Source: a virus (lineage: Duplodnaviria; Heunggongvirae; Uroviricota; Caudoviricetes). Taken from it: a DNA stretch of 4,716 nt. Below, piece after piece: positions 3,570-4,716 of this stretch (positions are counted from its first letter, which is position 1; the number at the start of each line of letters is the position of its first letter). The position numbers and the translations under genes were made by a program. The stretch lies in the IMG/VR virus record IMGVR_UViG_2695420897_000007. One strand, given 5' to 3'. The notes under the pieces are model-generated. The model was not told the origin of the DNA. It saw only the letters and a list, made by a program, of their open reading frames with translations, and made no database searches.

Positions 3570-4716
3570 ATGGCAGTAAAGATTTCAGGTGTACTGAAAG
3601 GCGGCACAGGAAAACCGGTACAGAACTGCACAATCCAGCTGAAAGCAAAACGTAACAGCACCACGGTGGTGGTGAACACCCTGGCCTCAGAAAATCCGGA
3701 TGAAGCCGGGCGTTACAGCATGGACGTTGAGTACGGTCAGTACAGCGTTATTCTGTTGGTGGAAGGATTCCCGCCGTCACATGCCGGGACCATCACCGTG
3801 TATGAAGATTCTCAACCGGGGACGCTGAATGATTTTCTCGGTGCCATGTCGGAGGATGACGTCCGGCCGGAGGCACTGCGTCGTTTTGAACTGATGGTGG
3901 AAGAAGCGGCGCGTCACGCTGAGGAGGCGAAGAAGAATGCCGGAGAGGCGGAGACGTCCGCGAGGAATGCTGGCATATCAGCCAGTCAGGCAGAAGAGAG
4001 CGCTGCAAATGCTGACACTTCAGCAGGGGATGCATCGGAGTCAGCCCGGCAGGCGGCAGAAAGTGCAGCCTCAGCAAAGCAGTCAGAGGATGCGTCCTCG
4101 TCCTCGGCCTCTGCGGCCGCTCAAAAAGCCAGTGAGTCATTACAAAGTGCAACAGATGCTGAGTTGTCAAAAAAGATGGCAGAAAGTGCAGCCGGTAATG
4201 CAGCCAGGGATGCAACGACCGCAACAGAAAAAGCCCGGGAGTCAGCAGAAAGCGCACAGTCAGCGGAACAAAGCAGGATAGCGGCGGAAGAGGCCGTAAA
4301 CCGAATCCCCACCGTGGTGGGACCTCCCGGGCCAAAGGGGGAACAGGGGCCCGCGGGTCCTCAGGGGCCGAAGGGTGATAAGGGAGAGCGCGGTGACACC
4401 GGCCCTGTCGGGGCAACCGGCGAACGGGGACCGGCAGGTGATGCTGGTCCGGCAGGCCCGCAGGGGCCGAAAGGTGACAGGGGAGAGCGGGGAGAGACCG
4501 GTCTGACGGGAAATGCAGGTCCACAGGGTCCAAAGGGAGATACCGGTGCGGCAGGCCCGGCAGGCCCACAGGGACCGAAAGGAGAAACAGGTGCGGCTGG
4601 CCCGGTGGGGGCAACCGGACCTCAGGGACCGAAGGGCGACCCGGGGGAGACACAAATCCGTTTTCGTCTGGGGCCGGCGAGCATTATTGAGACAAACAGC
4701 AATGGCTGGTTCCCGG
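3570..4716 (+). CDS. stf: Side tail fibre protein Stf, 3'-partial; N-terminal tail-attachment domain, Ala/Ser/Glu-rich stalk, collagen-like G-X-Y domain
   Basis: Not in the ORF track because no stop occurs before the window end. Hand translation from ATG 3570 (frame 3) gives 382 sense codons with no stop through 4715: MAVKISGVLKGGTGKPVQNCTIQLKAKRNSTTVVVNTLASENPDEAGRYSMDVEYGQYSVILLVEGFPPSHAGTITVYEDSQPGTLNDFLGAMSEDDVRPEALRRFELMVEEAARHAEEAKKNAGEAE... The first ~110 aa match the conserved N-terminus of lambda Stf and its E. coli prophage paralogues as I recall them. A GGGGTG purine-rich stretch lies just upstream of the ATG. Confidence 0.88.
   Translation, partial: MAVKISGVLKGGTGKPVQNCTIQLKAKRNSTTVVVNTLASENPDEAGRYSMDVEYGQYSVILLVEGFPPSHAGTITVYEDSQPGTLNDFLGAMSEDDVRPEALRRFELMVEEAARHAEEAKKNAGEAETSARNAGISASQAEESAANADTSAGDASESARQAAESAASAKQSEDASSSSASAAAQKASESLQSATDAELSKKMAESAAGNAARDATTATEKARESAESAQSAEQSRIAAEEAVNRIPTVVGPPGPKGEQGPAGPQGPKGDKGERGDTGPVGATGERGPAGDAGPAGPQGPKGDRGERGETGLTGNAGPQGPKGDTGAAGPAGPQGPKGETGAAGPVGATGPQGPKGDPGETQIRFRLGPASIIETNSNGWFP
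3900..4319 (+). repeat. Low-complexity Ala/Ser/Glu-rich stalk region inside stf
   Basis: The translation is dominated by A, S, E, with motifs such as AESAA, SAESA and ASESA recurring (…AEEAKKNAGEAETSARNAGISASQAEESAANADTSAGDASESARQAAESAASAKQSEDASSSSASAAAQKASESLQSATDAELSKKMAESAAGNAARDATTATEKARESAESAQSAEQSRIAAEEAVNRI…). An exact 16-nt direct repeat ggcagaaagtgcagcc occurs at 4055-4070 and 4178-4193. Confidence 0.7.
4320..4652 (+). repeat. Collagen-like triple-helix repeat tract (37 consecutive Gly-X-Y triplets) inside stf
   Basis: Translation GPPGPKGEQGPAGPQGPKGDKGERGDTGPVGATGERGPAGDAGPAGPQGPKGDRGERGETGLTGNAGPQGPKGDTGAAGPAGPQGPKGETGAAGPVGATGPQGPKGDPGET has Gly at every third position for 111 residues without interruption. 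The sub-motif GPQGPKG(D/E) recurs 5 times, with imperfect 21-nt DNA repeats (e.g. cctcaggggccgaagggtgat, ccgcaggggccgaaaggtgac, ccacagggaccgaaaggagaa). Confidence 0.88.

Follow-up and report, generated by a model that had tools for sequence, protein, structure and literature searches.

A run of 37 Gly-X-Y triplets is found in a side tail fibre gene at the 3′ end of a 4,716-nt stretch of viral DNA (IMG/VR record IMGVR_UViG_2695420897_000007, Caudoviricetes), which was analysed at its full length and is called the window below. The closest described counterpart of this gene is EPclA (EHEC prophage collagen-like protein A), a fibre type known from lambda-like prophages of pathogenic E. coli, whose architecture was given as PfN, PCoil, Col and PfC (Ghosh et al. 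2012, PLoS One 7:e37872, PMC3368898). The EPclA copies in the O157:H7 strains EDL933 and Sakai (e.g. ECs2717, ECs2941 and Z0982) are 437 aa long, with a PCoil of 116 aa and a Col of 111 aa; the Col lengths given for EPclA are 63, 78, 81, 111, 114 and 144 aa, and the differences between them are multiples of three (PMC3368898). Recombinant EPclA was found to be a trimer by analytical ultracentrifugation (AUC) and by size-exclusion chromatography with multi-angle laser light scattering (SEC/MALLS). The PfN-PCoil fragment and the isolated PfC are each trimeric as well, PfC by SEC/MALLS, and PCoil is alpha-helical (PMC3368898). The Col-PfC fragment gives the collagen signal in circular dichroism (CD) and melts cooperatively at 42 °C, and rotary-shadowing electron microscopy (EM) of EPclA revealed a dumbbell, in the stalk of which a thick segment, the coiled coil, is followed by a thin one, the collagen (PMC3368898). 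With respect to composition, Pro was reported in 48.1% of the X positions, with GPK, GPQ and GPA as the leading triplets and a recurrent GP(Q/P)-GPK-G(D/E) motif (PMC3368898).

A second system that bears on this gene is the Stf of Ur-lambda. Its first 91 residues make up a collar domain, which binds to gpV and gpM. Each trimeric fibre is fed by three such domains, and a virion has four fibres (PMC12617516). The protein family, the triple helix, the trimeric state and the variable length of Col were thus already published in 2012 (PMC3368898), and the structure of the N-terminal docking domain was solved in 2025. What is new here is a modest addition to these studies, namely that the joints of 14 natural length variants were mapped, from their sequences, and fall preferentially on what appear to be short imperfect homologies, which are often GPQGPKG(D/E) units.

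Comparison with EPclA and other known systems

Our analysis indicated that the Gly-X-Y tract is very probably the Col domain of a side tail fibre of the EPclA type, encoded by a lambda-like Escherichia coli prophage, and that its length varies by in-register blocks; we put the probability of this reading at roughly 0.85. The protein encoded in the window is 97% identical over 382 aa to the tail fibre (H0004) of VT1-Sakai, the Stx1 prophage of strain Sakai, and all 111 residues of Col are identical between the two. H0004 would be the Sp15 copy in Table 2 of Ghosh et al. The VT1-Sakai copy of EPclA differs from the window protein by 12 substitutions, all of them outside Col, and the window is without the last 55 codons. 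The likeness to EPclA includes the PfN-PCoil(116)-Col(111) order followed by the start of PfC, the length of 437 aa in the nearest full-length homologues, the prophage position, the X and Y preferences, and the GPQ-GPK-G(D/E) motif. The leading triplets in the window tract are GPK, GPQ and GPA, as in Ghosh et al. Because every defining feature of EPclA that can be examined in the window was found there, the protein is, as judged from its sequence, a member of the EPclA family and not a variant of the family.

The earlier note on this DNA, which was made from the letters alone, had placed 37 uninterrupted Gly-X-Y triplets at 4320–4652, and both the coordinates and the count proved exact: re-translation gave 111 residues with no break in the register, and no Gly was found in any X or Y position across the 37 triplets. 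Gly makes up 5.9% of the protein outside the tract, which gives a chance of about 3e-46 for 37 Gly in register. The enrichment of Pro in X was likewise confirmed, with 18 of the 37 X positions (48.6%) against 2 of the 37 Y positions. A further 13 X positions are Asp or Glu, and the Y positions hold Ala (8), Thr (8), Lys (7), Gln (6) and Arg (4) besides the two Pro. The Pfam search that the note had proposed matched the Collagen family (PF01391) with 66 bits against a cut-off of 27.2 (E = 2.6e-18), and the top matches in a sequence search of the Protein Data Bank (PDB) were vertebrate collagen chains. There are 10 Lys/Arg(Y)-Gly-Asp/Glu(X′) motifs in the tract. The charge pairs and the Pro in X would stabilise a helix that is free of hydroxyproline. 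If fully helical, the Col stalk would be about 32 nm long, at the rise of 2.88 Å per residue given by Ghosh et al. 2012. The note's suggestion of a triple helix of the collagen type within a trimeric tail fibre is well supported by the EPclA architecture and by a Col identical to that of VT1-Sakai, since both the trimer and the helix have been shown for EPclA (PMC3368898).

The rest of the fibre agrees with this assignment. The window protein matched the tail fiber families of PHROG at E = 2e-138, and the full-length gene in two annotated relatives (L001 and L002) has 1314 nt and encodes 437 aa; one full-length copy is at 872698–874011 of NC_013353.1. Residues 1–93 were aligned with residues 1–93 of the Ur-lambda Stf chain 9e7m_Ta in the PDB (E = 2.2e-52), and by analogy with Ur-lambda these residues would be the collar domain, through which the fibre is attached to the tail. 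Self-identity of the PCoil residues peaks at lags 7, 14, 21 and 28, which indicates a heptad periodicity. The match to PF06820 spans only profile positions 1–20 of 64, as the window ends inside PfC, and PF06820 is listed in the precomputed Pfam annotations of related proteins. One private substitution was noticed in the collar domain: residue 11 (window 3600) is Gly here (VLKGGTGK), and it is Asp, or once Asn, in the homologues examined (VLKDGTGK).

With the Stf of Ur-lambda the window fibre shares a homologous N-terminal collar (residues 1–93), the gene position after J and lom, and a trimeric fibre, the last being known from lambda (PMC12617516). However, the stalk of lambda Stf is a long hinged coiled coil, and its gp37-like distal domain binds OmpC (PMC12617516), whereas the window fibre would have a short coiled coil, a collagen triple helix and a PfC cap. 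The PF03406 (Pf2) repeat of the lambda Stf stalk gave no match in the window protein in the Pfam search. By this comparison the window fibre would work like lambda Stf at its docking end, and its shaft and tip would be different.

Collagen-like proteins from more distant sources were also compared. BclA, of the exosporium nap filament of Bacillus anthracis, likewise has a trimeric collagen-like region, a variable triplet count and a C-terminal trimerising cap, and the strain-specific number of its triplets sets the filament length, according to Sylvestre et al. 2003 as cited in PMC10470788. The BclA chain 1wck_A was matched at E = 3.7e-8 through the Gly-X-Y region. However, BclA is a spore surface glycoprotein with Thr-rich triplets, glycosylation and other flanking domains, is no part of a virion, and is related through the repeat only. 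Scl1 and Scl2 of Streptococcus pyogenes and the hyaluronidases of streptococcal phages, one chain of which (6x3m_A) was matched at E = 1.5e-5, resemble the window fibre in having hydroxyproline-free triple helices stabilised by charge pairs, but they differ from it in flanking domains, hosts and roles.

Length variation of the collagen tract

The 120 best protein homologues were examined, and a same-flank set was defined among them by the residues RIPTVV before the tract and QIRFRLGP after it. These same-flank homologues had 4, 5, 8, 14, 15, 16, 19, 20, 21, 25, 26, 32, 34, 36 or 37 triplets, and the relatives with a peptidase-S74 C-terminus among the 120 had 9, 27, 28, 33, 34, 36 or 38. In IMG/VR, 58 loci with the PfC flank were found, with 37 triplets in 48 of them, 27 in five, 38 in two, and 36, 32 and 8 in one each. 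The 37-triplet form is the modal allele, and the length is far from fixed. The earlier note had expected that fibre length may vary between related prophages, and had proposed that triplet counts be compared; the comparison bore this out, with 4–38 triplets within the same flanks, and an invariant length is ruled out. Length variation in itself had already been reported in 2012 (PMC3368898).

Several homologues depart from the common pattern in other ways. In some alleles (homologues P0110, P0111 and P0116, and loci whose tract ends in 'VLRGRRVI' or 'G*TGLTGN') the Gly-X-Y frame is lost or a stop codon is met after 4–19 triplets. Such alleles, which resemble the 'EPclA*' entries in Ghosh et al., are probably defective or frameshifted copies of the gene, and these losses of frame and stops inside the tract suggest that it is also a site of gene inactivation in decaying prophages. 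A Shigella-type homologue of 486 aa on a 3.5-Mb contig (P0078) is labelled by its source as 'collagen-like surface-anchored protein SclE [Streptococcus pneumoniae]', which is probably due to a mislabelled or contaminated assembly.

In another group of homologues (P0004–P0007, P0016, P0038 and P0089–P0100), mostly from Shigella and also from E. coli, the same PfN-PCoil-Col front end is fused at the last triplets (near window position 4652) to a peptidase S74 (PF13884) C-terminus. These fusions probably correspond to the EPclD type, and the collagen tract appears to act as a seam for the swapping of C-terminal modules.

Joints of the length variants

At the protein level, nearly every variant was found to be the 37-triplet sequence minus one block, with the joint on a recurring element. 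With the five GPQGPKG(D/E) units numbered in order (Table 1), units 1 and 5 are joined in the 8-triplet form and units 1 and 4 in the 14-triplet form. There are two forms of 19 triplets, one with units 1 and 3 joined and the other with units 2 and 5. Units 2 and 4 are joined in the 25-triplet form, units 1 and 2 or units 3 and 5 in the forms of 26 triplets, and units 3 and 4 in the 32-triplet form. In one form of 15 triplets the joint connects the two copies of GPV-GAT.

In their DNA, the 14 distinct variants examined were each found to be a 37-triplet allele minus one in-register block, with 0–7 mismatches. Exact homology at the joints was 2–17 nt, and 8 of these variants had the longest stretch that a block of their size allows. 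Because the true parent allele is guessed, mapping of the joints by exact homology is noisy, and it was supplemented by a test of local identity over 30 nt, in which all in-register deletions of the same size served as the null. The mean 30-nt identity of the joined sites was 0.68, compared with 0.53 ± 0.03 under the null, and the observed value was reached in 0 of 20000 simulations. Single-triplet changes were located at the two-copy 9-nt tandem at 4549–4567, where one unit was lost in an allele of 36 triplets (L049, with a joint zone of 10 nt) and gained in two alleles of 38 triplets (L039 and L046). The 4-, 8- and 14-triplet variants each had 0 mismatches to a 37-triplet allele, and this suggests that those three events are recent.

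The earlier note had regarded the tract as a likely substrate for slippage or unequal recombination. This held in part: the joints do favour locally similar sites, often the units, but the homology is short and imperfect and is not that of classic tandem-repeat slippage. Head-to-tail, near-identical DNA units, by which a tandem-repeat (slipped-strand) contingency locus is recognised, were not found in the Col tract.

DNA of the recurring units

The GPQGPKG(D/E) unit occurs five times in the tract; successive copies start 99, 63, 45 and 54 nt apart, always a multiple of 9, and together they cover 32–36% of the tract. In the earlier note the tract was said to be built from degenerate 21-nt repeats, with the units encoded by near-identical DNA. 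Our analysis does not support this description, as the units are dispersed, are 71–86% identical, and show no 21-nt period. No such period was found in the Col tract by Tandem Repeats Finder (TRF), by a direct-repeat finder or by lag autocorrelation. The self-identity of the Col-tract DNA was at background at lag 21 (0.28) and lag 42 (0.25), rose to 0.51 at lag 9, and had its maximum of 0.60 at lag 99; the true DNA periodicity of the tract is 9 nt. The arrays that TRF detected in the tract were limited to one of 45 nt (84% matches) and some of 9 nt, each with two copies, and the longest exact repeat in it was 11 nt.

The 21-nt cores of the five units had a mean pairwise identity of 16.8 out of 21. 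They were no more alike than if synonymous codons had been drawn at random at the frequencies of the tract itself (expected 17.05 ± 0.43, P = 0.74), and the count of identical codons among identical residues equalled the synonymous-choice expectation at every lag from 9 to 171 nt. The repetition is thus a property of the peptide, whose sequence accounts for all of the likeness seen in the DNA. If the charge pairs and the Pro in X have the stabilising role proposed above, this would account for a GPQGPKG(D/E) motif that is kept in the peptide and not conserved in the DNA. An excess likeness of the repeat DNA, which would point to recent duplication or gene conversion, was looked for and not found, since both the units and the codon pairs match the synonymous-choice expectation.

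PCoil also varies in length among the homologues. It is shorter by 2, 28, 41 or 63 residues in some homologues, the difference of 41 not being a multiple of seven, and the Col tract starts at residue 137, 188, 210, 224 or 251 across the homologues. Direct repeats in the PCoil DNA are spaced by 63, 84 and 105 nt, all multiples of 21, so that the 21-nt rhythm of the earlier note belongs to PCoil, if anywhere.

Other features of the window and gene neighbourhood

The window is the end of a lambdoid tail module, with the order J, lom and stf-like gene (Table 1); the counterpart of J in the region of E. coli O103:H2 strain 12009 is annotated as gpJ. Over its full length the window is 98.3% identical in DNA to the prophage of that strain. 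The best matches of the window are E. coli prophages and Stx-converting phages, and the stf-like part aligns without gaps, at 96–98% identity, with that of numerous Stx1- and Stx2-converting phages, VT1-Sakai among them. Matches to the window were found in 5007 of 5426 complete E. coli genomes, at a median of 2 and a maximum of 15 places per genome.

Table 1. Position of the genes, protein domains, recurring units and antisense reading frames in the window.
Feature	Position	Strand	Evidence or remark
Gene J, 3′ part (tail tip), runs off the 5′ end of the window	1..2838	+	Pfam Phage-tail_3, Ig_J, Ig_J_second, Phage_Tail_Tip, Ig_GpJ_C
lom (Ail/Lom outer-membrane beta-barrel)	2906..3505	+	PF06316, E = 2.9e-119
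stf-like gene for an EPclA-type side tail fibre, codons 1–382 of 437, cut by the 3′ end	3570..4716	+	Translation from ATG 3570
PfN, N-terminal domain, residues 1–133	3570..3968	+	PF08400, E = 1.7e-67, profile positions 1–133 of 134
PCoil, 116 aa, Ala/Ser/Glu-rich, predicted trimeric coiled coil, residues 135–250	3972..4319	+	Self-identity peaks, length match to EPclA PCoil
Col, 37 Gly-X-Y triplets, putative collagen triple-helix stalk, residues 251–361	4320..4652	+	Translation, PF01391
GPQGPKGD unit 1	4356..4379	+	Joint site of 8-, 14-, 19- and 26-triplet variants
GPQGPKGD unit 2	4455..4478	+	Joint site of 19-, 25- and 26-triplet variants
GPQGPKGD unit 3	4518..4541	+	Joint site of 19-, 26- and 32-triplet variants
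Two-copy 9-nt tandem CGGCAGGCC (GPA-GPA)	4549..4567	+	TRF; site of one-triplet loss or gain in 36- and 38-triplet alleles
GPQGPKGE unit 4	4563..4586	+	Joint site of 14-, 25- and 32-triplet variants
GPQGPKGD unit 5	4617..4640	+	Joint site of 4-, 8-, 19- and 26-triplet variants
PfC start, C-terminal trimerisation domain, residues 363–382	4656..4715	+	PF06820, 31.5 bits against a cut-off of 25
Antisense ORF, 286 aa, 25.5% Pro opposite Col	3793..4653	−	ORF list and composition
Antisense ORF, 131 aa, Arg/Leu/Ser-rich opposite Col	4260..4655	−	ORF list and composition

Strong terminator-like hairpins with T runs were detected by a terminator scan at 2857–2876, after J, and at 3532–3553, before the fibre gene. 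They bracket lom, and this fits lom as a separately expressed insert in the late operon.

Two open reading frames (ORFs) lie antisense to the Col tract. It had been suggested in the earlier note that long proline-rich antisense ORFs can mislead gene callers; the ORFs do exist and the first is Pro-rich, but the second is not. The RefSeq record annotates neither of them, and the gene calls of the nine contigs examined contain neither, so that no evidence was seen of gene callers being misled in practice. Their status as real genes was rejected, because they are annotated in no record examined and their composition mirrors the GGN-CCN codon bias.

Beyond the 3′ end of the window, the E. coli O103:H2 12009 locus contains an 89-aa ORF (L001:8885-9154) that begins one base past the stop codon of the 437-aa fibre gene. 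This ORF matches PF06820 and phrog_576 ('tail fiber protein') and is present behind every variant allele that was fetched; it may encode an assembly factor or a second fibre subunit. Directly 3′ of the fibre genes of the same locus (L001:9331-12716) are the type III secretion effector genes nleB2, a fragment of nleC, nleH and a frameshifted cif, and this prophage is one of the effector-carrying lambdoid elements of enterohaemorrhagic E. coli (EHEC).

Discussion

In the scheme that best fits these results, three chains of the fibre protein would associate and, like Stf in Ur-lambda, be anchored to the tail tube and tip by their N-terminal collar domains. A thin trimeric stalk would be formed by the Ala/Ser/Glu coiled coil of 116 aa, followed by the Gly-X-Y tract of 111 residues, and PfC would trimerise and cap it. 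This stalk would contain no hydroxyproline, and its stability would come from Pro in about half of the X positions and from the Lys/Arg(Y)-Gly-Asp/Glu(X′) charge pairs. Over evolution the stalk would change by whole triplets, through the loss and occasionally the gain of in-register blocks. The end points of the blocks would lie in short imperfect homologies between dispersed units, and single-triplet changes would occur in the 9-nt tandem. The events would likely come about by template switching during replication or by relaxed short-homology recombination, within one gene or between the stf copies of one genome. Homology as short and imperfect as that seen at the joints would speak against both classic tandem-repeat slippage and RecA exchange over long homology. 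The sequence features, the architecture, the length variants and the joint positions come from the present analysis, and the trimer, the triple helix and the docking of the collar from earlier work; which enzymes bring about the rearrangements, and whether adsorption depends on stalk length, are matters of inference.

Several points weigh against this interpretation. The homology at the joints was no better than the null in 5 of the 14 variants (both 27-triplet alleles, one of 19 triplets, one of 26 triplets, and the 4-triplet allele). The parent alleles and the direction of each event, whether deletion or duplication, were assumed, and the variants are not phylogenetically independent. Some of the contigs that carry them are short and belong to draft or metagenome assemblies. 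The units have DNA that is only as alike as their peptide requires, with no exact repeat above 11 nt, so that the tract is a weak substrate for recombination, and the 37-triplet form is by far the commonest allele (48 of the 58 PfC-type loci in IMG/VR). Finally, the window stops within PfC, and the full architecture was read from homologues that are about 98% identical in DNA and 97% in protein.

It is possible, though in our view the less probable account, that the length variants arose mainly by misaligned or mosaic exchange between stf alleles, either paralogues in one genome or those of co-infecting phages, with the tract as a permissive joint for module swaps. As many as 15 matching places were counted in one genome, with a median of 2, so that partners exist for recombination between copies. 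The junction at which the PfN-PCoil-Col front end passes into peptidase S74 (PF13884) in Shigella and E. coli, '...GAP GQG | TELLTTAN', points the same way, as do the mosaic order of the triplets in those tracts and the 3–7 mismatches that separate several variants from the best 37-triplet reference. However, three variants are identical to a 37-triplet allele except for the missing block, and an event within a single allele or between near-identical copies fits them equally well. Exchange between alleles differs from the block-loss scheme set out above only in the partner molecule, and the sequence data separate neither from the other.

Very improbable is the suggestion that the tract is a flexible low-complexity linker, or that the prophage expresses the protein mainly as a collagen-like bacterial adhesin or virulence factor and not as part of the virion. 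Collagen-like proteins of other pathogens act as adhesins, and whether the EPclPs do so too was stated to be not known (PMC3368898); many such prophages are defective, and the closest locus adjoins genes for type III effectors. However, EPclA shows cooperative collagen melting and a rod-like stalk in EM (PMC3368898), and the gene is placed in the tail module after J and lom and carries the Stf collar domain, by which the Ur-lambda fibre is attached to the tail.

The usual k-mers of assemblers are longer than 11–17 nt, and the exact repeats in the tract reach at most 11–17 nt, which makes collapse at these joints unlikely. Although several variant proteins come from contigs of 1–4 kb or from a metagenome scaffold, the explanation that much of the length variation is an assembly artefact, caused by short-read collapse of a repetitive tract in several prophage copies, was rejected as highly implausible, given these short repeats, a 15-triplet variant in the closed chromosome CP045690.1 (L091), five variants (P0023, P0046, P0066, P0069 and P0081) that are all on contigs >4 Mb, the occurrence of Col domains of both 81 and 111 aa in the genome of strain Sakai, which is finished (PMC3368898), and the fact that all variants are in frame with the Gly register kept.

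With the tract taken as the Col domain of an EPclA-type fibre, our data reach only so far: different lengths and module swaps exist, and the joints favour locally similar sites, often the units. A bolder proposal, which we regard as doubtful at present, is that stalk length is a selectable setting. The units would then give a discrete menu of lengths, from about 3 to 33 nm, that matches the reach of the fibre to the depth of the O-antigen or capsule, and the tract would also serve as a neutral joint at which C-terminal receptor-binding modules (PfC or peptidase-S74) are swapped. If stalk length does affect adsorption, EPclA-type fibres could be a simple system for the tuning of phage reach. 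These fibres also bear on the spread of prophages that carry Shiga toxin and effectors.

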